Shown here: positions 29,626 to 44,610 of the stretch, one piece after another
How positions within the stretch are numbered: the first letter of the stretch is position 1
How the letters are laid out: every line of letters begins with the position of its first letter
DNA from: a virus
Lineage: Duplodnaviria > Heunggongvirae > Uroviricota > Caudoviricetes
Virus record (IMG/VR): IMGVR_UViG_3300045988_163275
Location: 32,001 to 96,000 of that record
Length of the DNA: 64,000 bases
Direction: 5' to 3' (one strand)
Notes under the pieces: generated by a model
Seen by the model: only the letters and a program-made list of their open reading frames with translations
Told to the model about the DNA's origin: nothing
The model's database searches: none
Program-made: the position numbers and the translations under genes

Positions 29626-30681
29626 ATGAGCGTAAACGACAATAAAAACATTGCGATAAGCGAAGCATTTTCCGAAACAGACAAAAAGACCGGCGAAGTT
29701 GTTACGTTAGTTCCTAACACCAACAACACAGTTCAGCCTGTTGCTCTGATGCGTCTTGGTCTCTTCGTTCCGACGCTGAAATCGACATCCAGGGGTAGAA
29801 AGGGGCAAATGGTCTCTATGGACGCCTCCGCTGAACTCAAACAGCTGTCTCTGGCCAAAGCCGAAGGGTACGAGGATATAAGGATTGCTGGTCTTCGTCT
29901 TGATATGGATAACGATTTCAAAACATGGGTGGGCATCATCCACGCGTTCGCCAAGCACAAGGTTGTTGGTGACACCGTCACGTTGCCGTTCGTCGAGTTC
30001 GTCAGACTTTGTGGCATACCAACAGCCAGATCGTCCGCGAAGTTACGTAAGCGCCTGGACAGCTCTCTAAGTCGTATCGCCACAAACACCATCTCATTCC
30101 GCAGCAAAGGCTCTGAAGAGTATTACGTTACGCACCTTGTGCAGACGGCAAAGTACAGTACCAAGAATGACACGGTCGAACTGAAGGCCGATCCTAAGAT
30201 TTTCGAACTTTACCAGTTCGACAAAAAGGTGCTTTTGCAACTTCGGGCCATCAACGAACTCTCCAGAAAGGAATCCGCGCAGGCGCTCTACACCTTCATT
30301 GAAAGTTTGCCACCAGACCCGGCGCCAATCTCATTGGCTCGCTTACGCGCCAGACTTAACTTAACCAGCCGCACCATTACCCAGAATGCGACAGTCAGGA
30401 AGGCGATGGAGCAACTGCGAGAGATCGGCTATCTCGATTACACTGAAGTGAAACGCGGCAGCTCGGTCTACTTCGTCATCCACTATAGACGGCCGAAGTT
30501 ACGTTCGGCACTGCCGCCATCTATGGCCACGCCTGAAGATCCAGAAGATATCTTGCCAGGTGATGATCCGGAGGACATTATCGATGTTGCTCCTGAAGAA
30601 AAAGACGGGGAAATGGTCATGTTGAGCAAGGAAGAACTGGCGATTCTCGAAGAGCTGCGCAAGGCAAAGGCTCGCAAATAG
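29626..30681 (+). CDS. repA: plasmid replication initiator RepA (iteron-binding)
   Basis: flanked on both sides by iterons; [61 protein letters not shown] blocks resemble P1-type RepA as I recall it. Confidence 0.8.
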
Positions 30682-31996: not shown

Positions 31997-32013
31997 TATT
32001 TTTGCTGTTAATA

Positions 32014-32325: not shown

Positions 32326-32777
32326 AATGGGCGCTATAAGGCGCACAATCATTGTGTTCAGGCTGGTGGAAAGAACTTCTCCAGCGTGTGGTTGATAGCC
32401 TTATCAATGTGCATCAGGTGGCCAAATTCAGTGTGCCACTTCACTCGAACCCCAAGACCGGCAATGGAATCGCTTTGTAGAGCTAGAGTTAGTGCCGCAT
32501 CCTCGTATTGAGCACAGCGAAGCGATTGAGCTAGACTATGGCATGACGGGGGGCGCTCTAAAGGTTGAGATTAGAGCGGCCTCGGCAGGCTACTTACTCA
32601 GACAATGGAATGTGGATTGTTCTACCAACGCCACACTCCAAGATGGTGGAGCTCAATTGTACTTAAAGAACAGAGCAACACTTTATGGAGTTAAAAACAT
32701 CATGCTAGCTCCAGGGATTGAAAAAGAACTTGGTAACTAATGCACAAAAACGAACTTGGCGCAGAGAATAAATTTTG

Positions 32778-35700
32778 ATGAAAATAATCGATAACCTTAA
32801 CAACCTATTAGGTGACGAGCTTCAACAGACGCTGACACCGAATACAAAGTTAAAGATTGCTGCGTCTTGCTTTTCTATTTATGCGTATGAGGCTCTCAAA
32901 AAGGAGTTAGCGAAGATAGACTCACTTGAGTTCATCTTCACATCACCTACTTTTGTCGCAGATGAAGTTACCGATAAATTCAAAAAAGAAAAACGAGAGT
33001 TCTTTATTCCCAAAGCAGGGCGTGAACGCAGCCTTTACGGAACTGACTTTGAAATACAGTTAAAGAACAAGCTCACTCAAAAGGCGATCGCCAAAGAGTG
33101 TGCAAACTGGATCAGAAAGAAAGCGACATTCAAATCAAACAAAACTGATTCTCCAATGCAGTCGTTTGTTGTGACGGAAGCACCTAGACAGCAAACAGAG
33201 ACAATGAGTGCAGTTTTTGCTCCGGTTAGCGGGTTTACGGCGGTTGATCTAGGGTATCAGCGAGGAAATGCTATTTCGAATTTTGTGCAAAAAATCGATG
33301 AGCCAAATTTCACAGCCCAGTACTTACAGTTATTCGACCAAATTTGGAAAGACCCTGCGAAGCTTCAAGATGTTACTAAAACAATTTGCGAGCATATAGA
33401 GTCTGTCTACCAGGAAAACTCGCCTGAGAAAGTCTATTTCATTATTTTGTATAACATTTTTAATGAGTTCCTTGATGATATTACAGAGGATGTATTACCA
33501 AATGATCGAACCGGCTATCAGGACACCTTGATTTGGAACAAGTTATTCAACTACCAAAAAGATGCCGCGACTGGGATTATCAATAAGTTAGAGACCTATA
33601 ACGGCTGCATTCTGGCTGATAGTGTTGGTCTTGGTAAAACATTTACAGCGTTAGCTGTCATCAAGTATTACGAGCTCAGGAACAAGTCCGTACTTCTACT
33701 GTGTCCGAAAAAATTGGCAGATAACTGGCTCAACTTTAATCGAAACTTAAAGACAAATATTTTTGCTAAAGACCGTTTTAGTTACGATGTTTTGTGTCAC
33801 ACAGATTTGAGTCGAACCTCTGGCGAATCCTTCGGTACTCCGTTGAATAGAATAAACTGGGGTAACTATGACTTGGTCGTCATTGATGAGTCGCATAACT
33901 TTAGAAATAACGATGCAGTGAAAGATCGAGAAACTCGATATCAGAAACTGATGAATAAAGTGATTCGCGCTGGCGTAAAAACCAAGGTGCTGATGCTATC
34001 AGCGACACCAGTGAATAACAGATTTACTGACCTGAGAAACCAGCTCGCGTTAGCTTATGAAGGCGAGTCGAGCAATCTCACAAAGCATCTTAAAACCACA
34101 AAAAGCGTAGAACAGATCTTCAACCAAGCACAAGCCGCATTTAACGCTTGGTCCAAACTCGACCCAGAGACGCGAACAGCTAAAGCCATACTCGATGCCT
34201 TAGATTTTGACTTTTTTGAACTGCTTGATAGCGTCACTATCGCTCGCTCACGAAAGCACATCACAACTTTCTACGACACAACAGATATTGGCCATTTCCC
34301 TGAACGTAACAAGCCAATCTCGTTTCATTGTCCGCTTACTACTCGTTCGGATGTAGTAAGCCTGAATGAGATCTTTGAACAGCTTAAGCTACTCAAACTA
34401 TCTGTTTATGCGCCAGTGAGTTATATCCTCCCGAGTAGATTGAAGAAATATGAGGAGATGTATGACACGGAAGTTGAAGGCGGAAAAGGTAAGTTAAAGC
34501 AAAGCGACCGTGAAAAAAGTTTGGTTGCATTGATGACAACGAACCTCCTAAAGCGTCTTGAGAGCTCCGTATACTCGTTCAGAAGCACCTTGCAATCTCT
34601 CCATGATAACCATGTTCGTGTTCTAGGTATTATCGACGAATTCTATAAGCGAGACGGGCAAACCGAAGTGAGCAGTCTCGTTGAAGCGCTAGAGTCTATT
34701 GAAGCAGATGAAGACGATATGCCTTCTTATCACGATATGGAAATCGGTAACAAAATCAAAATTAAGCTAATGGATATGGATCTTCCATCCTGGCAGCAGG
34801 ATTTAGATGGCGATTTGGAGCTGATCAAAGGGTTACTAGATTCTGTTAGCAAAATTAAGCCAGAAGAAGATGCTAAGTTGCAGCATCTGAAATCACATAT
34901 TGCTGCAAAAATAAATAATCCGATAAATCCTGGAAACCGGAAAATCATCGTGTTCACGGCGTTTGCTGACACCGCTCAGTATCTGTACGAGCAGTTGTCA
35001 CCTGTGATGTTAAGCGAGCATAGAATCCATACTGCGATGATCACTGGTGGTGCCAGTTTACCTAAGACCACCTTAAAAACCGGACGAAAAGGTTACGACA
35101 CACAAGAAGTGCTCACCTTGTTTTCTCCAGTTTCCAAATCGAAAGCCAGTGTATTACCTGACGAACCCGCTGAAATCGATTTGTTGATTGCTACAGACTG
35201 TATCTCTGAAGGGCAGAACTTACAGGATTGCGATTACTTAATTAACTTTGATATTCATTGGAATCCAGTTCGGATTGTTCAGCGCTTTGGGCGTGTTGAC
35301 CGTATTGGCTCGGCGAATAAATGTATTCAGTTAGTTAACTACTGGCCTGATATATCGCTGGATGAGTACATCAACTTAAAAGAACGTGTTGAAAGTCGAA
35401 TGACGATTGTTGACGTAACAGCGACCGGTGATGACAACGTTCTAAGTTGTCAAGCGAATGATGTGTCGTACCGTAAAGAGCAGTTAAAGAAACTACAAGA
35501 AGAAGTCATCGAGCTTGAAGATTTAAAAACGGGGGTTTCTATCACCGATCTAGGTCTAAACGAATTTCGAATGGACCTGCTAAATCTAATGAAACTCTAC
35601 GGCGAACCAAGAAATGCACCAAGCGGCATGCATGCGGTGGTTGAGGCTAAGCCAGAATTAGGGTTATTGCCTGGCGTGGTGTTTGCGCTGAAAAACGTTA

Positions 35701-36110
35701 ATAACAGTATCGATAGAGATCTGCAAAACAGGCTCCACCCTTATTACCTTGTCTATGTATCGAATGAAGGGGACATCGTCGCTAATCATTTTGAGGTAAA
35801 GAGACTATTAGATTTAATCCGAAGTAGCTGTAAAGGTCAAACAGCACCGCTCAGTGAGATTTGTGCTTTATTTAATCGCTTAACGCAAGACGGTCGAGAT
35901 ATGCAGTGTTACTCTCACCTTCTAACAGATGCCATAAAAAGCATGGTTGAAGTTAAGGAAGAAAAAGATATTGATAGTTTGTTCAATGGTGGCGCTACCT
36001 CAGCTTTAGTGAATACATTTGCCGGGCTTGATGACTTTGAATTGCTGGCATTTATTGTGATCCAGCAAAAGCAGCTGATGGAAAACAGTGCCCAGGATGA
36101 GGTTAGCTAA
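32778..36110 (+). CDS. SNF2-family helicase with ~250-aa N-terminal domain of unknown function
   Basis: motif I ADSVGLGKTFTA, motif II LVVIDESHNFRN, motif III LMLSATPVNN, C-terminal helicase motifs ATDCISEGQNLQDCDYLINFDIHWNPVRIVQRFGRVDRIGS; 1110 aa; AT-rich. Confidence 0.85.
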   Translation: MKIIDNLNNLLGDELQQTLTPNTKLKIAASCFSIYAYEALKKELAKIDSLEFIFTSPTFVADEVTDKFKKEKREFFIPKAGRERSLYGTDFEIQLKNKLTQKAIAKECANWIRKKATFKSNKTDSPMQSFVVTEAPRQQTETMSAVFAPVSGFTAVDLGYQRGNAISNFVQKIDEPNFTAQYLQLFDQIWKDPAKLQDVTKTICEHIESVYQENSPEKVYFIILYNIFNEFLDDITEDVLPNDRTGYQDTLIWNKLFNYQKDAATGIINKLETYNGCILADSVGLGKTFTALAVIKYYELRNKSVLLLCPKKLADNWLNFNRNLKTNIFAKDRFSYDVLCHTDLSRTSGESFGTPLNRINWGNYDLVVIDESHNFRNNDAVKDRETRYQKLMNKVIRAGVKTKVLMLSATPVNNRFTDLRNQLALAYEGESSNLTKHLKTTKSVEQIFNQAQAAFNAWSKLDPETRTAKAILDALDFDFFELLDSVTIARSRKHITTFYDTTDIGHFPERNKPISFHCPLTTRSDVVSLNEIFEQLKLLKLSVYAPVSYILPSRLKKYEEMYDTEVEGGKGKLKQSDREKSLVALMTTNLLKRLESSVYSFRSTLQSLHDNHVRVLGIIDEFYKRDGQTEVSSLVEALESIEADEDDMPSYHDMEIGNKIKIKLMDMDLPSWQQDLDGDLELIKGLLDSVSKIKPEEDAKLQHLKSHIAAKINNPINPGNRKIIVFTAFADTAQYLYEQLSPVMLSEHRIHTAMITGGASLPKTTLKTGRKGYDTQEVLTLFSPVSKSKASVLPDEPAEIDLLIATDCISEGQNLQDCDYLINFDIHWNPVRIVQRFGRVDRIGSANKCIQLVNYWPDISLDEYINLKERVESRMTIVDVTATGDDNVLSCQANDVSYRKEQLKKLQEEVIELEDLKTGVSITDLGLNEFRMDLLNLMKLYGEPRNAPSGMHAVVEAKPELGLLPGVVFALKNVNNSIDRDLQNRLHPYYLVYVSNEGDIVANHFEVKRLLDLIRSSCKGQTAPLSEICALFNRLTQDGRDMQCYSHLLTDAIKSMVEVKEEKDIDSLFNGGATSALVNTFAGLDDFELLAFIVIQQKQLMENSAQDEVS

Positions 36111-36113
36111 TCT

Positions 36114-36800
36114 ATGTACTCACCTTGGATATTTCCTGACAAAGCAAAGTTCGGTCGAGTCGTGCCGAAGAACAAAATATACGAACACAGCGCGGCAAGC
36201 GCTGGATTGAAGTCACTTTTTGTAGAGCAAGTAGAGCAAATCCTTTGGGCTTACAAGCTATCGCCTAGCACGCTGAATATTCCTCAAACCAGTGAGGTCA
36301 GTGAAATACAGGTTTTCAGTGTGAAGCTTAAAGGTGACTCGATAGACGACAGCGTACTAAAAGCCATTGATTTGGCGATACCTTTTCCCATTCTATTTGA
36401 GGTATGGGAAGCTCGCGGTGAGCAAGGCCACTACGTTGCTTGCTATAAGCGTAAGGCAGAAAATGATCAGTCAAAATGGTTTTGTAGCCGCTATTTACGC
36501 TCAGAAACCTTCTATTCAAGTGATTCATTAGCAGTGACTTCAGAAGTTTTGGGGTTGCCTACCGCCATCGATATGGCGGAGCTGTATCAAAAGCTTCTTA
36601 CTCGCTTGTTACCCATACCCCAACGAGCCGCTGAGAGTATTGAAGAGGTCATTGAACGCTTGATGGCAATTCAGGCATTGGAAAAGCAAATCTCGCAATA
36701 TAAGAAGAAGGTTCATGCCGAGAAACAGTTTAACCGCAAGGTTGAGCTCAATAAGCAGTTAAAGAATTTAAGGTGCGAGCTTCAAGAGTTACTCGCATAA
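36114..36800 (+). CDS. 228-aa protein of unknown function, coiled-coil C-terminus, coupled to the helicase
   Basis: ATG 3 nt after helicase stop; C-terminal heptad-rich segment; no catalytic motif seen. Confidence 0.7.
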   Translation: MYSPWIFPDKAKFGRVVPKNKIYEHSAASAGLKSLFVEQVEQILWAYKLSPSTLNIPQTSEVSEIQVFSVKLKGDSIDDSVLKAIDLAIPFPILFEVWEARGEQGHYVACYKRKAENDQSKWFCSRYLRSETFYSSDSLAVTSEVLGLPTAIDMAELYQKLLTRLLPIPQRAAESIEEVIERLMAIQALEKQISQYKKKVHAEKQFNRKVELNKQLKNLRCELQELLA

Positions 36801-36873
36801 AGAATAAACAATTTCAATCAGTTAAATAGTGCCACATGCTTTTTATGCAAGGCATCACGCAAAAGGTGAACAC

Positions 36874-38796
36874 ATGGACAAATTAAAGATGCACAGCCCC
36901 GACATGACGCAGCAAAACATAGAGAAAATTCAGGCGTTGTTTCCGAACTGCGTGACGGAATCAAGAGGAGCTAACGGAGAGCTAAAGTTAGTCATTGATT
37001 TTGACCAACTTAAACAAGAGCTATCAAATTCAATCGTTGAAGGCCCGCAAGAGCGCTATCAGCTGAACTGGCCCGGTAAGCGAGAAGCACTACTAACAGC
37101 GAACGCACCTATTGCAAAAACATTAAGACCTTGTCGAGAAGAAAGTGTTAATTTTGATACCACAGAAAACCTCTTTATTGAAGGTGATAACCTTGATGCG
37201 CTAAAAATGTTGCAAGAAACCTATTTGGGCAAGGTTAAGGTGATTTATATAGATCCGCCCTATAATACGGGTAAGGATTTTATATACGAAGACGATTTTG
37301 CTGAAAATTCTGATGGGTTTTTGAAGCGGTCAAATCAAAAGGATGAAGAAGGCAATCGCCTTGTAGCCAATACCGATTCCAACGGTCGCTTTCACTCAGA
37401 CTGGTTGAGCATGATATTTTCGAGACTTAAACTTGCACGCAATATACTAAGTAGTGATGGAATTATCTTTATTAGTATAGATGAAAACGAGCTTGATAAC
37501 CTCTTGAAAATAGGAAAGGAAATATTTGGTGAAGAGAACCACATAACTACGTTTTGTTGGGAAAAAAAGAAGAAACCATCTTTTCTTAATAAAAATGTAG
37601 GTTCGAAATTCGAGTATATTGTCACCTTTTCAAAGAATCGTGATTACACAGGTGCATTTTCCATTGATCTTACAACTGAAGGTAAAAAGTACCCCCTGAA
37701 TAATGCAGGGAACTCACTCGGAAACCTTGTTTTTCCAGCAGGTTCGGTACGATTCAACTTGCCAGACCAGATTATAGAACCGCAAGATATGTCTGAGGGT
37801 AAAATAAAAACCAGGTTAATTAATAGGTTGGAAATAATTGGAGGTAAAAACGTTAATGAATTTATCCTTGAGGGTGAATGGAGATATTCTCAGAATAGAT
37901 TAAATGAAATTCTAGAAAATCGAGAAGAAATTATAATCAGCAAAGTTCCGTTTAGGCCAAATCATGTAAAAGCAGGAGGTGAGATAAAAAAAATGCACAA
38001 CCTCCTAAGTGTCGCTCATTATAAAGTTTCAACTAATGAGGATGCGGATGCCGAAAGTTCAGAGTTGATGGGGAATAAATACTTTGATTACACCAAGCCT
38101 TCAAATTTAATCAAACTATTAATCCAAGCAATAACTTATGACGATCAAGAATGTCTAGTATTAGATTTTTTTGCGGGTTCATCAACAACCGCCCATGCCG
38201 TGATGCAACTTAATGCAGAAGATGGCGGAAATCGAAAATTTATCATGGTTCAGTTGCCTGAAGAGTGTGATAAAAAATCAGAAGCCTTCAAAGCTGGCTA
38301 CAAAACAATTGCTGAGATATCAAAAGAACGCATCCGCCGTGCTGGTGCAAAAATATTAGAAGGGGAGTGCCACAAAGACTGGAATAAAGACGTTGGTTTC
38401 CGAGTGCTTAAAGTTGATACATCCAATATGGCCGATGTCTACTACTCGCCAGAGCAGGTTTCTCAGGGTTCGTTAGACTTATTGGTAGATAATATTAAAT
38501 CAGACCGCACTGATGAAGATTTACTTTTCCAGGTTCTACTTGATTGGGGCGTCGATTTAACCTTGCCAATTAGAAAAGAAACGATTCAAGGTAAATCGGT
38601 ATTCTTTGTCGATGATGATGCACTGGTGGCCTGTTTTGATCTGCGCATAAATGAAGCTTTGATTAAAGAGTTAGCCATAAAAGAACCTCTTCGCGTAGTG
38701 TTCCGTGATGACGGCTTTGAATCTGATGCAGTAAAAATCAATGCTGAGCAGATTTTCAAGCAAGTGTCGCCATATACTGAAGTTAAAGCGATTTAA
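36874..38796 (+). CDS. mod: Type III restriction-modification Mod subunit (beta-class N6-adenine methyltransferase)
   Basis: [13 protein letters not shown] ... [23 protein letters not shown] (motif IV) precedes [16 protein letters not shown] (motif I); ~640 aa; ATG with AAGGTG SD (track ORF starts GTG 36829). Confidence 0.85.
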
Positions 38797-38891
38797 GGGG
38801 GGAGCATGACAAATTTTACCGGATTAAAATTTGCACACAGCCTTGTCGCAGACAAGGTGTGCCCAAAGGGTTGCGTACAGGGAGGTGCGCA

Positions 38892-41800
38892 ATGAAACTT
38901 AAATTCAAAGTCCAGCCTTATCAAACTGTTGCCGTAGAGTCGGTTGTTGACTGCTTTGCGGGGCAACCTAATACCTCCGGTATAACCTACCGAATCGATC
39001 CTGGCATTGCCAAAGATAAATTTGGCAATGCTGGCTGGGATATGAGTGACCAGGATGGGTTTAAAAATGCTGAACTTGCGATCACTGAATCGCAGTTATT
39101 GCAAAATATCCATGGTGTTCAAAGTAGACAGAACCTCCCTGTTTCAGAAGCGTTAGCCAGCAATGCTAGCTCTAAGATTAATCTCGATGTTGAAATGGAA
39201 ACCGGTACAGGTAAGACATATTGCTACATCAAAACTATCTTTGAGATGAATAAACGCTATGGCTGGAGCAAATTTATTATCGTAGTGCCTAGCATTGCCA
39301 TTCGTGAAGGTGTTTACAAGTCGCTACAAATCACAGGTGAGCATTTTGCCCAGAATTACAACGGTAAAAAGGCACGGTTTTTCATCTATAACTCAAAACA
39401 ATTGCACCAGTTAGAGAGTTTTTCTTCTGACAGTGGCATCAATGTCATGATCATTAATATTCAAGCCTTTAATGCATCAGGAAAAGACAATCGACGTATT
39501 TATGAAGAGTTGGATGACTTCCAGTCTAGGCGTCCTATTGATGTTATTAGTGCAAACCGTCCAATCCTGATTTTGGATGAGCCGCAGAAGATGGAAGGTA
39601 AGAAGACATTAGATGCCTTAGCCAAATTCAAACCACTGATGGTACTTCGATATTCGGCCACGCATAAGACAACACATAATAAGGTGCATCGTCTGGATGC
39701 TCTTGACGCTTATAACAATAAGCTGGTTAAGAAAATTGCAGTTCGTGGTATCTCAGTAAAGGGTTTAGCGGGCACTACAGCCTATCTATATCTGGAATCC
39801 ATCGAAATCTCAAAAAAAATGCCAGTGGCTCGTATAGAGATCGAGGTTAAACAACAAAATGGCATCAAACGCATACCCAAGAAGGTCACTAAGGGCGATA
39901 ATCTTTTTGATCTTAGTAATGGTTTGGACCAGTACCGTGATTTTGTGGTTACTGATGTCAACGCGATTAACGACACAGTTGAATTCAAAAATGGCCATGT
40001 TTTAACCGCGGGCGATGCCACGGGAGACGTGACCGAAGAGACCATTCGCCGCATACAGATTCGCGAGACAATTAAAGCACACCTTGAAAAAGAAAAAATA
40101 CTTTTTAACCAGGGTATAAAGGTTCTCTCTCTCTTTTTTATTGACGAAGTCGCAAAGTATAGGGACTACTCTCAAGCCGATGAAAAAGGTGATTATGCTC
40201 GCGTTTTTGAAGAAGAGTATTCCTTGCTTGTACAGGAGTATCTTGATGAGTTGTCCCTTTTGCCAAGTGAGCAGACTGATGCCTATAAAGCCTATCTATC
40301 GGCCATTGAAGGCTCTAGAACGCATAATGGTTACTTCTCAATTGATAAGAAATCAAATCGTCTTCAGAACCCCGGCTTTAAAGTCCGTGGTGAAGATGCC
40401 GGGCTATCAGACGATGTAGATGCCTATGATTTGATTTTAAAAGATAAGGAAAAGTTACTTTCGTTTGAAGAGCCTACTCGATTTATCTTTTCACACTCGG
40501 CCTTGCGCGAGGGGTGGGATAATCCAAACGTATTTGTCATGTGTATGTTGAAACACAGCGACAATACTATCTCTCGTCGTCAAGAAGTTGGACGTGGTTT
40601 ACGTCTGGCCGTCAATAAACATGGTGACAGACAAGATCATCCGGCAACTGTGCATGAAATTAATGTCTTGTCGGTGATTGCAAGTGAAAGCTATAAAGAC
40701 TTTGTCACGAATCTGCAAAAAGAGATCAGCGAGTCTCTCTCAGCGAGACCTAGAAAAGCAGATGAAGCTTATTTTACGGGTAAGACAATTACAACAGCTG
40801 ATGGACCTGTAGAAGTAACACCTGTCATGGCTAAGCAAATTTATAAGTATTTGCTTAAAAATGATTATACCAATGACGTTGACGATTCAATTGCGCCATC
40901 ATTCCACCAGGCTAAGGCTAGTGGGCAGTTAGCGCCAATGCCTGCTGAGTTAGAGCCTTACCGCGAGCAAATATTGACCCTGATTGACGGTGTTTATAGT
41001 GAAGCGCAATTGCCAGGTGTTGGTGATGATCGTAAACCTAAAAACAATCCGTTGAATGCTAATTTTGATAAGAAAGAGTTTCAGGAGCTTTGGCACAAAA
41101 TCAATCGCAAAGCGGTTTATAAGGTTGATTTTGATTCGTCTGAGTTGATTAAAAATTGTATTCGGGTACTCAATAAAGAGCTTAAGGTAACGCCTCTTCA
41201 GTACACGATTCAAGATGGTGTTCAATTGGATGGCATTACCGACGAACAACTCAAAGCTGGACAAAGTTTCAAGGTGAAAAACACTGAGACTGAAACTCAT
41301 CAATCGAGCATTCATTCTGCTGTTCGTTATGACTTGGTTGGTAAGTTGGCTGAAAATTGTGTGCTGACTCGCAAAACAGTCGCCGAAATACTGATGGGTA
41401 TAGAACCTGTAGTATTTGCACAATTTAAGCAGAACCCTGAGCATTTTCTCGCTGAGGCTTCACGCCTTGTGAAAGAGCAAAAGGCATCTGTGATCATCGA
41501 GAAGCTATCATATGATCCAACGAACGAATCTTATGATGTTGATATATTCACGGCAGAGCAAAAAATCACTGATATGACAAAAGCCGTTAGTGGCGTTAAT
41601 AAGCATATTTATGATTATGTTGTCGTTGATTCACAAGGCATTGAACGGGACTTTGTTACCGAGCTTGATACAAGCAAAGAAGTCGTGGTTTATGCAAAAC
41701 TGCCTCGTGGTTTTCTGATACCGACGCCTGTTGGCGACTACAACCCTGATTGGGCGATTTCTTTCAAAGAAGGAAGTGTTAAACACATTTACTTTATTGC

Positions 41801-41969
41801 AGAGACTAAAGGAACGATGTCTTCGCTTGAATTGCGTGGCATAGAAGATCGCAAGATTGAATGTGCTAGGAAATTCTTTGAAAAAATTAATGCAGAGATA
41901 ACGAGTGAAAACGTCAAATATGATGTTGTAACGAGTTACTCGAAATTAATGGAAGTCATAAGCGGTTAG
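38892..41969 (+). CDS. res: Type III restriction enzyme Res subunit (helicase + PD-(D/E)xK nuclease)
   Basis: [23 protein letters not shown]-terminus, Walker [20 protein letters not shown]; C-terminal YNPDWAISF ... [10 protein letters not shown] nuclease motif; strong GGGAGGTG SD. Confidence 0.85.
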
Positions 41970-41990
41970 TTGTTTTCGTTTTTATATCGG

Positions 41991-42024
41991 GCTGTCAGTT
42001 CATCTGGCTGACAGCTCACTTTTA
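41991..42024 (+). terminator. rho-independent terminator ending the island operon
   Basis: GCTGTCAG-TTCATCTG-GCTGACAGC then TCACTTTT. Confidence 0.55.
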
Positions 42025-42211
42025 GTTACATAAAAATAATTGAAAAATTGAGTCAGCAGATTGAGTCTAAATGTCGCTCACTCATGCGGTTATATTTTAA
42101 GTATGGTTGTTGACATGACGGAGAAATAGCATGAATCCTGAAAAGTGAATCGCCACTGCCATCAGATAGAGTTTGATCATGTGTTTTCCTATGTGGCTAT
42201 TGTGTGTAGAT

Positions 42212-42270: not shown

Positions 42271-44610
42271 TTAATCTTCTAATTCATCTGTCGGTGATGT
42301 CTTCTCGCGCCTGTCATCTATTGCCTGTAACGCAGCAATGATTTCAGCTAATGGCTTCTCCCGGTACATCTCGACGATCTGTGATTTGGTGTATTTCTTC
42401 TCGCCAATTTCCACACGCCCGCTGGCGCTCTTGGGCAGGTATCCTTCCTCCAGCATGTATTCAACCAGAGACTCGACGACGTCCAGCCCGCGAGTCGGGT
42501 CGAAGTAGAATTTCCATGAGCATTTGCCAAACGGAGGCGCGACTTTGTTTTTAATGCACTCGGCGCCAACGTCCTGTCCGATCTTCTCTTTGCCATCCTT
42601 CATGACGGATGCACCCAGACGGATGCGCACCGACGCGTAGAACTTCGGAGAGTCGCCACCCGGAGACGTAGTCGGATCGCCAAACATCACACCAATTTTG
42701 GTACGCACCTGGTTCAAGAAGATGATGCACGCGTTGTACTTACGCGCCCAAAGCGCCAGAGTAGGGAAGTTCGCACTTGTCGCGCGCGCCAGCGCCGTGT
42801 TGTCGTTCATGTTCAGCTGATCTTTGTCCTTCGCAGTGCCTTCTGCCATCTTGTCGAACTTCTCAGCCTTCGAGTTCGGAACCATCGACGCCAGAGAGTC
42901 GGCTACGATGCAGATAGGGGCTGTTTCCGGAATAAGCTCTTCGTCGCGCACCAGCTTGAGGATTGTGCCGATCAGCTCTACGGAGTCTTCGAAGGTATCC
43001 GGCTGTTTGTAGACCCACTGACCGTCGTCTTCGTCGGCGTTCAGTCCGTTCGCTACCGCCAGACCAACGTCGAAACTGTTTTCGTGGTCAAGGAATACGG
43101 CCAGACCATCCTGTTTTTGTGCTGACACCATCGCAGCTGTCGCGAGGAATGTGTTGTGGCTGATAATCCCGTTAGACCAGAAAGAGTGTGTTTCCGGCAT
43201 CGCTACGTCGAACGTTGGTGCTTCACCTTCCTCAATAGCCACGACTTCGTCGTAGAACAAGTTAGAGTCAATTACCGCTGCCAGTTGTGCAAACAGATGC
43301 TCGTTAAAACGATTCTTTCTGCTAATGAAGGAGACATAGATTTCTCGCAGTTTGTCTATTCCGACACGATCGCCGCGGCCAATAACGTGATCTACCAGAA
43401 CGTAGTCTTTACGAGAGGTCTTGGTGAGTGACTCGTAGAGTGATTTCACTAAGCCGCTGATGTGCGGAACGTAGCCTAAATAAGTGCGGTCAAAACTAAT
43501 GTCCCGTTTGGTTGCCACTGCTAAACGAGCCGGAGACTCGAACCCAATCGTTGACAGGAAAAGGTCGTAGTTAGAGCCACTGAATGACAGCCGGTAATAT
43601 ATGTTTTTATAACCTGCGACGTGTTTTTCAGAGATAGTTGACGTAATCCCCAGATTCAGGAGCATGAGGCGAATTTGCTGTAGCAGCAGCCCACTCGCGC
43701 TCACAACCTCAATGCAGCGACCATCATTGATGTGGCATTCCAGCTCAAAGTAGCCGCGAAGGAATGCAATTTGAGCCTCGCTATTGGCGCGACGCACACT
43801 CAACGGAACCTGCTTGCCAGCAGCTTTCTCATACTCCAGACCATATTCTTTAAAAAGCAGCGAACGCACCTCTTTGCTAAACAGCACATGGTCTTCCGAG
43901 CCGTTATGTTTTCTCGTAACTGGCATCTTGTCTGATACCAGCGAAATGAGGCGGTAGTACTCATCCTTGATGAATGGATCTGTGTTAGAAAAATGCACAG
44001 AATTTTCAGAGGCCACGTATCCGTCAGCAATTAAATAGCCCATCAGTTTTGCGATATTGGCATCCAAGTGCTGATCGCCGAATTGATGTGTGCCAACCAT
44101 TGAAGGAATCGTGTCGCCTACACTGATTTTTTCAGCATACCGCCAGACGATATTGCCTAAGTCGTCAACCACACGAATTGGGTGACGGAACGTAGCCTCG
44201 ATGTAACCCCCTGATGCCAGCTTAATGCGCTTGAATTTGCGACGGTTGTTCCATGTCAGGTGTGAGGTCTTCTCTATCACGCCATTTTCATTGATGAGTC
44301 CAACGTTATGCTCTACATCGCGAGTAGTGCATGTTGCTTTGTGCCCCTCAATCTCAAACAGTTCTTTCACTGTTACCATTCCACGCTCCGTCAGCAGCAT
44401 GGTGTCTGCGGTAACACATTTCCCCGCGCTTGGTGGCCCGAAGACTTCAACGATACGCCCACACGGAAAACCACCGTCGTAACGTCCGGAAATGGCTTTG
44501 TTCAGTGGAGGGAAACCGGAGTCAATCCAGTGGGAGACCTTCTGAATCTCGTCATTGCTGCCGATTTTCTTTTTCAGCGCCAGTGCCAGTGCGGATTTGC
44601 CTTTTGCCAT
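42271..44610 (-). CDS. recA: RecA recombinase interrupted by a 422-aa intein
   Basis: exteins total ~357 aa with GPPSAGK P-loop and IFLNQVRTKIGVMFGDPTTSPGGDSPKFYASVRIRLG core; ATG with AAGGAG SD. Confidence 0.9.
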   Translation of the reverse strand: MAKGKSALALALKKKIGSNDEIQKVSHWIDSGFPPLNKAISGRYDGGFPCGRIVEVFGPPSAGKCVTADTMLLTERGMVTVKELFEIEGHKATCTTRDVEHNVGLINENGVIEKTSHLTWNNRRKFKRIKLASGGYIEATFRHPIRVVDDLGNIVWRYAEKISVGDTIPSMVGTHQFGDQHLDANIAKLMGYLIADGYVASENSVHFSNTDPFIKDEYYRLISLVSDKMPVTRKHNGSEDHVLFSKEVRSLLFKEYGLEYEKAAGKQVPLSVRRANSEAQIAFLRGYFELECHINDGRCIEVVSASGLLLQQIRLMLLNLGITSTISEKHVAGYKNIYYRLSFSGSNYDLFLSTIGFESPARLAVATKRDISFDRTYLGYVPHISGLVKSLYESLTKTSRKDYVLVDHVIGRGDRVGIDKLREIYVSFISRKNRFNEHLFAQLAAVIDSNLFYDEVVAIEEGEAPTFDVAMPETHSFWSNGIISHNTFLATAAMVSAQKQDGLAVFLDHENSFDVGLAVANGLNADEDDGQWVYKQPDTFEDSVELIGTILKLVRDEELIPETAPICIVADSLASMVPNSKAEKFDKMAEGTAKDKDQLNMNDNTALARATSANFPTLALWARKYNACIIFLNQVRTKIGVMFGDPTTSPGGDSPKFYASVRIRLGASVMKDGKEKIGQDVGAECIKNKVAPPFGKCSWKFYFDPTRGLDVVESLVEYMLEEGYLPKSASGRVEIGEKKYTKSQIVEMYREKPLAEIIAALQAIDDRREKTSPTDELED
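43153..44418 (-). mobile_element. intein with LAGLIDADG homing-endonuclease domain inserted in the RecA P-loop
   Basis: starts CVTADTMLL after GPPSAGK, TFRHP block, LMGYLIADGYV and FLRGYFELECH dodecapeptides, ends IISHN followed by T; boundary codons checked by hand. Confidence 0.8.

Follow-up and report, generated by a model that had tools for sequence, protein, structure and literature searches.

Why should a Type III restriction-modification pair be accompanied, in one operon, by a DNA motor of the SNF2 family and a small protein of the family DUF4391? The question is raised by a stretch of 64,000 nucleotides (nt) from a virus of the class Caudoviricetes (IMG/VR record IMGVR_UViG_3300045988_163275, positions 32,001 to 96,000), referred to here in its full length as the window. 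At 32778-41969 on the plus strand it carries a single operon, here termed the cassette, in the order SNF2 helicase, DUF4391 protein, methyltransferase Mod and helicase-endonuclease Res, followed by a terminator. In the classical Type III system a short asymmetric site is read by Mod, which methylates the DNA of the host and also carries Res; DNA without the mark is cut by Res once ATP has triggered its movement along the DNA. Cleavage requires ATP and a pair of unmethylated sites in inverse orientation, and methylation is confined to one strand. This dependence on paired head-to-head sites is also a weakness of Type III enzymes, which phages exploit through a strand-biased distribution of sites.

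The cassette is a real, widespread, strongly conserved and uncharacterised variant of Type III restriction. It is suggested, with a probability of about one half, that it forms a single integrated restriction-modification defence unit, based on Type III, in which the SNF2-DUF4391 pair would serve as a DNA-translocating partner. A model's interpretation of the letters and their ORFs (open reading frames), made before any database search and referred to here as the sequence-only reading, had taken the pair as an uncharacterised accessory to Type III restriction. That description stands in so far as the cassette is set apart from known systems and the pair is linked to the Type III genes; the accessory role itself is deduced from gene order.

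Linkage of the SNF2-DUF4391 pair to Type III genes

One genome per species (100,044 species) was scanned with an alignment of DUF4391, the best 80 of 268 relatives, from 80 species, were kept, and the ORFs of these 80 loci were searched with the four window proteins. A full-length helicase, with its N- and C-terminal domains, lies directly upstream of DUF4391 in all 65 loci that have at least 3.6 kb of upstream sequence, and both Mod and Res lie downstream in each of the 49 loci that have 9.5 kb or more on that side. All genes of the surveyed cassettes are co-oriented and in the same order. The co-occurrence across genomes that the sequence-only reading had proposed as a check is therefore strict in this sample, and chance adjacency of the pair and the Type III genes is rejected on these counts. 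Of 78 junctions between helicase and DUF4391, 55 are overlaps of 4 nt (the median being -4 nt) and, because of this overlap, the two genes are likely to be translationally coupled; in the window DUF4391 starts 3 nt past the helicase stop, which bears out the tight coupling noticed in the letters alone. Between the window and 34 distant loci, the median identity is 70% for the helicase, 67% for Res, 51% for Mod and 44% for DUF4391, and the similar divergence of helicase and Res is as would be predicted for one co-inherited unit.

The surveyed hosts comprise Alpha-, Beta- and Gammaproteobacteria, Desulfobacterota, Myxococcota, Planctomycetota, Spirochaetia, Lentisphaerae, Chlorobiaceae and a clostridial metagenome-assembled genome. 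Outside the survey sample the same gene order is present in a dairy plasmid of Lactococcus lactis, a Listeria plasmid, Ligilactobacillus, Enterococcus and Syntrophus aciditrophicus, an unannotated 185-residue gene of the Listeria plasmid being a divergent DUF4391 (hhalign probability 97.5%). It is also kept in three diverged E. coli lineages. A homologue of the helicase occurs in 87 of 5426 complete E. coli genomes, among them CFT073 (in the leuX island) and NCTC11121, both of which have the same gene order. In NCTC11121 (L085, 11703-12916) an IS3 element lies between helicase and DUF4391 and breaks their coupling, so that this strain would serve as a natural mutant of that coupling. In CFT073 (L084, 5275-8864) the cassette stands beside remnants of other defence genes, namely a BrxA fragment, a fragment of a restriction endonuclease that binds phosphorothioated DNA and an HNH fragment, and the leuX island looks like a decayed defence island.

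Other defence genes are embedded in the cassette at two places, the gap between DUF4391 and Mod in 18 loci and that between Mod and Res in 19 loci (about a quarter each). They include an OLD-like ATPase-TOPRIM protein with DUF2130, SIR2 with HerA, an AAA ATPase with an S8 protease (IetAS-like), AAA_13, a UvrD-type helicase, SoFic, Schlafen/AlbA_2 with HATPase_c_4, PLD nucleases and Bro-N. Two ORFs of one insert (L049; 486 and 581 residues) have no Pfam match and could be new defence genes. The cassette is thereby a recurrent landing pad for further defence genes, always co-oriented, a habit that is useful for finding new ones.

These inserts bear on an alternative in which the helicase and DUF4391 would be an autonomous two-gene defence module with an effector of its own, perhaps a nuclease in DUF4391 or in the end domains of the helicase, that travels with Type III genes through synergy or by reading the methylation mark left by Mod. 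Inserts between DUF4391 and Mod split the cassette into halves and, together with those between Mod and Res, indicate that translation of the two halves need not be linked, which keeps such a module under consideration. Related SNF2 proteins are furthermore found in methylation-based systems that have no classical Res (DrmD of DISARM, HmaA), and the weak, non-significant fold matches of DUF4391 include several endonuclease-type folds. Nevertheless, this alternative is considered unlikely: no pair without Mod and Res was seen among the sampled loci, no nuclease motif or domain was detected in either protein of the pair, and the divergence of helicase and Res is nearly equal, as for one inherited unit.

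The SNF2 helicase and the DUF4391 protein

The helicase contains the Pfam domains SNF2-rel_dom (260-425) and Helicase_C (720-845). Its motifs I (GLGKT at 284), II (DESH at 370), III (SATP at 408) and VI (QRFGRVDRIG at 835) are those of the SNF2 family, and its closest counterparts by sequence in the PDB are SMARCA5, RapA and a Sulfolobus Rad54-like helicase. At least 8000 candidates were scored in the homologue search, the best matches being 72-82% identical across classes, and PHROG 26785, annotated 'unknown function', matches the protein over its full length. The N-terminal 250 and the C-terminal 230 residues are conserved as strongly as the motor, with 76 invariant columns in the N-domain (54 homologues) and a mean column identity of 77% in the C-domain alignment, and both are without a match in profile searches against Pfam and PDB sequences.

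The N-domain was searched against 1.84 billion representatives, and the best 150 matches are all close family members without an HKD motif, so relatives that bear HKD were not reached by this search. The motif HxK(x)4D is absent from residues 1-250 of the window protein, from 70 homologues and from relatives at 30-37% identity, and no PLDc Pfam match was obtained for 54 members of the family even at E 10. Because no member has the HxK(x)4D motif, the N-domain is not a catalytic PLD nuclease; the same absence of HKD from the first ~250 residues had been read from the letters of the window, and it holds across the family. No nuclease motif or identifiable nuclease domain was found in the helicase with Pfam, PDB sequences and the HKD scan. 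The AlphaFold model of the N-domain is of low confidence (predicted local distance difference test, pLDDT, of 42), the alignment behind it probably being too uniform.

The protein encoded downstream matches PF14335 at 186.8 bits, against a gathering score of 29.9, over residues 7-223 of 228. Its AlphaFold model (pLDDT 85) consists of an alpha/beta domain (1-130) and a helical hairpin (176-227), the tip of which, EKQFNRKVExN (203-213), is nearly invariant. The sequence-only reading had described a 228-residue coiled-coil protein; this agrees with the helical hairpin but does not extend to residues 1-130, and the protein is not a coiled coil throughout. A search for structural relatives of the model returned weak and non-significant fold matches only, no DUF4391 match is present in PADLOC or NCBIfam, and the PHROG family of the protein is annotated 'unknown function'. 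In the papers searched for DUF4391/PF14335 no function is discussed, the family being named in a gene-content table and, by a slip, in place of DUF7941.

Mod and Res

Mod matches the PADLOC model MTase_III (PDLC03634) at E 8e-226 and Pfam N6_N4_Mtase at E 2.5e-32. Within its 655-residue ORF the catalytic motif DPPY (residue 142) precedes the S-adenosylmethionine (AdoMet) motif FFAGS (near residue 450), the arrangement of Type III N6/N4 methyltransferases. Res matches PADLOC REase_III (PDLC03647) with 1164 bits as well as Pfam ResIII and RE_endonuc, and its gene adjoins mod; a Walker A motif (GTGKT) and a C-terminal PD...ETK motif give it, by sequence, the superfamily 2 (SF2) ATPase and the PD-(D/E)xK endonuclease of a Type III Res. 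The adjoining mod and res genes, the order of the Mod motifs, the SF2 helicase motifs and the C-terminal endonuclease are all shared with the classical enzymes EcoP1I, EcoP15I and StyLTI, from which the cassette differs in that its Mod and Res are always preceded, in the sampled loci, by an SNF2 ATPase and DUF4391. The ATPase, methylase and endonuclease motifs of the cassette are all intact. Thus, the positions of the ORFs and the identification of an SNF2-type helicase with a Type III Mod and Res, as first made from the letters, match what is found with Pfam, PADLOC and NCBIfam.

Against the NCBIfam model PRK15483, Res scores 400 bits, below the cut-off of 564. The E. coli res genes that align with it over most of its length are of the cassette type (for example that of CFT073), and other Type III res genes share a 160-nt helicase motif only. 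Because of this low score and this short sharing, Res, and with it Mod, is placed in a clade separate from that of EcoP15I and StyLTI.

The centre of Mod (37314-38392) is unalignable to that of marine cassettes whose flanks are ~95% identical, and Mod as a whole is 62% identical to these cassettes compared with 98% for the helicase and Res. An unalignable centre amid near-identical flanks suggests that the target-recognition region has been swapped and hence that the specificity differs. The starts of Mod and Res are probably ATG 36874, with a GGTG Shine-Dalgarno sequence ahead, and ATG 38892, with GGGAGG ahead. A 29-codon ORF (38806-38895) with a strong Shine-Dalgarno sequence, GGGGGGAG, is situated between the stop of Mod and the start of Res, and the TGA of this ORF overlaps with the ATG of Res. 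Marine cassettes of 95% identity lack this stretch of ~86 nt and have only 4 nt between Mod and Res; the ORF may serve as a leader for coupling or be the scar of an insertion. Cassettes of Lactobacillales have two N6_N4 methyltransferase genes and small ORFs between DUF4391 and Res, as against one Mod in the classical systems.

Relation to known defence systems

In the DefenseFinder 2022 tables only 'RM_Type_III' is called at CFT073 5116943-5122040 and Syntrophus 1694070-1699091, which is exactly Mod plus Res. The helicase and DUF4391 lie outside any system in these two genomes, so that two of the four genes are left out and the loci are counted as plain Type III restriction-modification.

In PADLOC the helicase is matched best by 'C3a139 HKD+Snf2', over its whole length (E 4e-122; 407 bits over 948 positions); the match is weak per position, at 0.43 bit compared with ~1.2 for the models of Mod and Res. 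To judge by its place in the accession series, C3a139 presumably belongs to the PADLOC system GAO_29. This would favour an explanation in which the cassette is a member of an already validated system, Gao_RL, and only its mechanism is new. Gao_RL, which Gao et al. 2020 described as 'restriction-like' (DefenseFinder Gao_RL, PADLOC GAO_29), comprises, according to secondary sources, four proteins including an SNF2-clade helicase, is grouped with DNA-modifying systems and is said to act in a restriction-like manner. Four proteins, an SNF2-clade helicase and the restriction-like label are what set the cassette beside Gao_RL in these descriptions, and no details of the system are present in the supplements of the Hachiman, Shewanella CAST (CRISPR-associated transposon) and 'genomic landscape' papers. 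Identity with Gao_RL is nevertheless quite improbable: neither of the two cassette genomes receives a Gao_RL call, the C3a139 match is far poorer per position than those of Mod and Res, the helicase family is without HKD, DUF4391 is without a PADLOC model, and the one Gao_RL locus for which coordinates are given spans 7.5 kb, not the ~9.2 kb of the cassette. Gao_RL is probably the closest validated relative of the cassette, by way of a weak match of the helicase family only.

DISARM class 1, composed of the SNF2 helicase DrmD, the adenine methylase DrmMI and DrmA, DrmB and DrmC, is like the cassette a defence operon in which an SNF2 ATPase occurs together with an N6-adenine methyltransferase and a further helicase, and DrmD is the best NCBIfam match of the helicase. 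However, the match reaches 152 bits where 610 would be needed, no match to DrmB (DUF1998) or DrmC (PLD) was found among the four cassette proteins, the 71 bits obtained with DrmA cover the shared helicase core only, and the nuclease of the cassette is a bona fide Type III Res. Membership of DISARM is rejected, as DrmA, DrmB and DrmC genes are missing and DrmD lies far below its cut-off. Membership of BREX is likewise rejected, the core genes being missing: no Pfam or PADLOC match to PglZ, BrxC/PglY, PglX or BrxL was found among the cassette genes, and the helicase gives a partial match (88 bits) to the BrxHII type. In Hma, as in BREX with BrxHII, an SNF2 motor is coupled to a methyltransferase, and the Hma operon, as the cassette, is a hotspot for embedded defence genes. 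Hma consists of HmaA, an SNF2 helicase with its own C-terminal nuclease, the methylase HmaB and the ATPase HmaC; the cassette helicase differs in having no detected nuclease domain, and its match to HmaA is partial (82 bits).

The sequence-only reading had already placed the gene set outside DISARM and BREX, and the profile searches agree, assigning the helicase and DUF4391 together to no characterised system. Given that the association of an SNF2 motor with a methyltransferase is known from DISARM, BREX and Hma and from the Gao system, the cassette is, on comparison, no categorically new kind of system.

Phage-plasmid setting

The backbone of the window is that of an SSU5-like phage-plasmid, with 93.5% identity to Salmonella phage SSU5 over replication and recombination genes, and the genes that flank the cassette belong to this backbone. 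The cassette has no match in SSU5 or in any of 50,697 phage records, and its GC content is 0.40-0.43 compared with ~0.49 in the flanks. Cassettes of Shewanella, Marinomonas and Salinivibrio are 92-96% identical to it exactly over 32444/32445-42146, the centre of Mod excepted. The cassette is cargo on a phage-plasmid. The helicase-DUF4391 stretch is 100% identical to the E. coli plasmid NZ_CP100974.1, in which the PGAP (Prokaryotic Genome Annotation Pipeline) call for the helicase also starts at the ATG corresponding to 32778. In the record of this plasmid res, which lies across the record origin, is annotated as frameshifted, and it is intact in the window; the frameshift may be a natural loss of restriction with the other genes kept.

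The left end of the island (32445-32740) is annotated by PGAP in the identical plasmid as 'WYL domain-containing protein, missing N-terminus', and it matches the C-terminal 101 residues of full-length ORFs of 290-320 residues in related loci. In 13 of 63 related loci the gene immediately ahead of the helicase is a full-length WYL-type regulator, an intact helix-turn-helix (HTH)/YafY regulator holds that position in E. coli CFT073, and other versions of the cassette have a small HTH gene in place of the WYL regulator. An upstream WYL/HTH regulator is thus part of many versions of the cassette, with a truncated copy here.

This setting raises the possibility that the pair acts as a device for safety or establishment, in which the SNF2 motor strips Res complexes from host DNA or otherwise restrains restriction on entry to an unmethylated host or after DNA damage, in parallel to the restriction alleviation known for Type I. 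The cassette is mostly found on mobile DNA (the phage-plasmid, plasmids, and a tRNA-leuX island with an integrase remnant), Type III methylation is placed on one strand only, and SNF2 enzymes are protein-displacing motors, with RapA as the nearest bacterial PDB example. Such a role is rather unlikely, given that dedicated WYL/HTH regulators are already present upstream in many versions, that ordinary Type III systems on mobile elements cope without such a motor, and that the very high conservation of an 1100-residue protein exceeds the apparent need of a timing device.

A proposed mechanism and its weight

In the preferred reading, that of one integrated Type III-based unit, the SNF2 ATPase and DUF4391 would be made in fixed proportion from their coupled frames, and their complex would act with Mod-Res on incoming DNA. 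The SNF2 protein would be an ATP-driven translocase on double-strand DNA that loads on unmodified foreign DNA and either clears bound proteins or roadblocks or brings Res complexes together. By this means the classical need for two head-to-head sites, which are reached through passive sliding, would be relaxed and a wider range of DNA cut. DUF4391, with its conserved basic hairpin tip, could link the motor, as an adaptor, to Mod-Res or to the DNA. Beyond the gene set, the co-inheritance, the coupling and the intact motifs, which are observed, we infer the physical association of the proteins and the action of the motor. It is highly probable that the SNF2-DUF4391 pair depends functionally on the Type III pair, and the specific motor role of the SNF2 protein is held with much less confidence. 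The defence context is strong, consisting of embedded defence genes and of carriage as cargo on a phage-plasmid.

Several points weigh against this proposal. Classical Type III enzymes function without such a partner, and contact of the pair with Mod-Res is hypothetical. The defence-gene inserts split the cassette, so that a tight coupling of its two halves is not required. The survey used a two-peptide-pattern scan of which the best 80 of 268 relatives were kept, and distant DUF4391 proteins in other contexts could be missed. Finally, the modelled alpha/beta domain of DUF4391 could be an enzyme that has gone unrecognised.

A stronger form, which makes the SNF2-DUF4391 pair an indispensable third component and has it alter how the Type III enzyme finds and cuts DNA, is put forward as a tentative possibility, with the odds against it. 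Motor-driven delivery could here, for example, replace passive sliding and the collision of two sites, or restriction could be coupled to the sensing of anti-restriction proteins; DUF4391 would be an adaptor with a new fold. If this were the case, the cassette would represent a distinct and widespread class of restriction that is filed by current tools as ordinary Type III.

A Type III clade that is never without an SNF2 motor and DUF4391 in the sampled loci implies a missing piece of Type III biology, in carriers that range from uropathogenic E. coli CFT073 to dairy lactococcal and Listeria plasmids and many environmental bacteria. Explaining the cassette would give a first function to DUF4391 and to the two conserved end domains of the helicase, and it is readily testable because the operon, in CFT073 or on the phage-plasmid, is ~9.3 kb long and native to E. 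coli.

Coordinates and neighbouring features

The positions of the cassette genes, of the island that contains them and of the inserts in related loci are collected in Table 1.

Table 1. Features of the cassette and of related loci. Positions are those of the window, except where a locus (L) is named; aa, amino acids.
Feature	Position	Strand	Basis or remark
SNF2-family ATPase/translocase, 1110 aa	32778-36110 (ORF 32775/32778)	+	Pfam SNF2-rel_dom and Helicase_C
Helicase N-terminal domain, aa 1-250	32778-33527	+	Conserved; without HKD motif
Helicase C-terminal domain, aa 881-1110	35418-36107	+	Conserved; without Pfam or PDB sequence match
DUF4391 protein, 228 aa	36114-36800	+	PF14335 at E 7e-55
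Type III Mod methyltransferase	36874-38796 (ORF opens GTG 36829)	+	PADLOC MTase_III and N6_N4_Mtase
Type III Res helicase-endonuclease	38892-41969 (ORF opens GTG 38859)	+	PADLOC REase_III, ResIII, RE_endonuc
Terminator-like hairpin	41989-42017	+	12-bp stem, T-rich tail, 20 nt past Res stop
Low-GC cargo island with the whole cassette inside, 9.7 kb	32445-42146	+	GC and homology edges
WYL/HTH regulator 3' remnant, ~100 codons	32445-32740	+	Cut at the left edge of the island
Inserts between DUF4391 and Mod	L011, L023, L027, L037, L044, L047, L049, L058	co-oriented	
Inserts between Mod and Res	L019, L025, L026, L041, L053, L054, L079, L080	co-oriented	
Further locus with embedded defence genes	L086 16971-19273	co-oriented	
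Extra-methyltransferase regions of Lactobacillales	L082 13614-14779; L088 8759-10762; L089 10641-13315		

Two further features of the window lie outside the island. To its right, at 42271-44610 on the minus strand, a RecA-like recombinase of the backbone is split by an intein that carries a LAGLIDADG homing-endonuclease domain (Pfam RecA, Intein_splicing and LAGLIDADG_3). To its left, at 24610-27841 on the minus strand, an SbcC-like SMC/AAA_23 ATPase (720 aa) is paired with an SbcD-like metallophosphatase (361 aa); the two adjoin the replication gene repA (29626-30681) and presumably belong to the phage-plasmid backbone.

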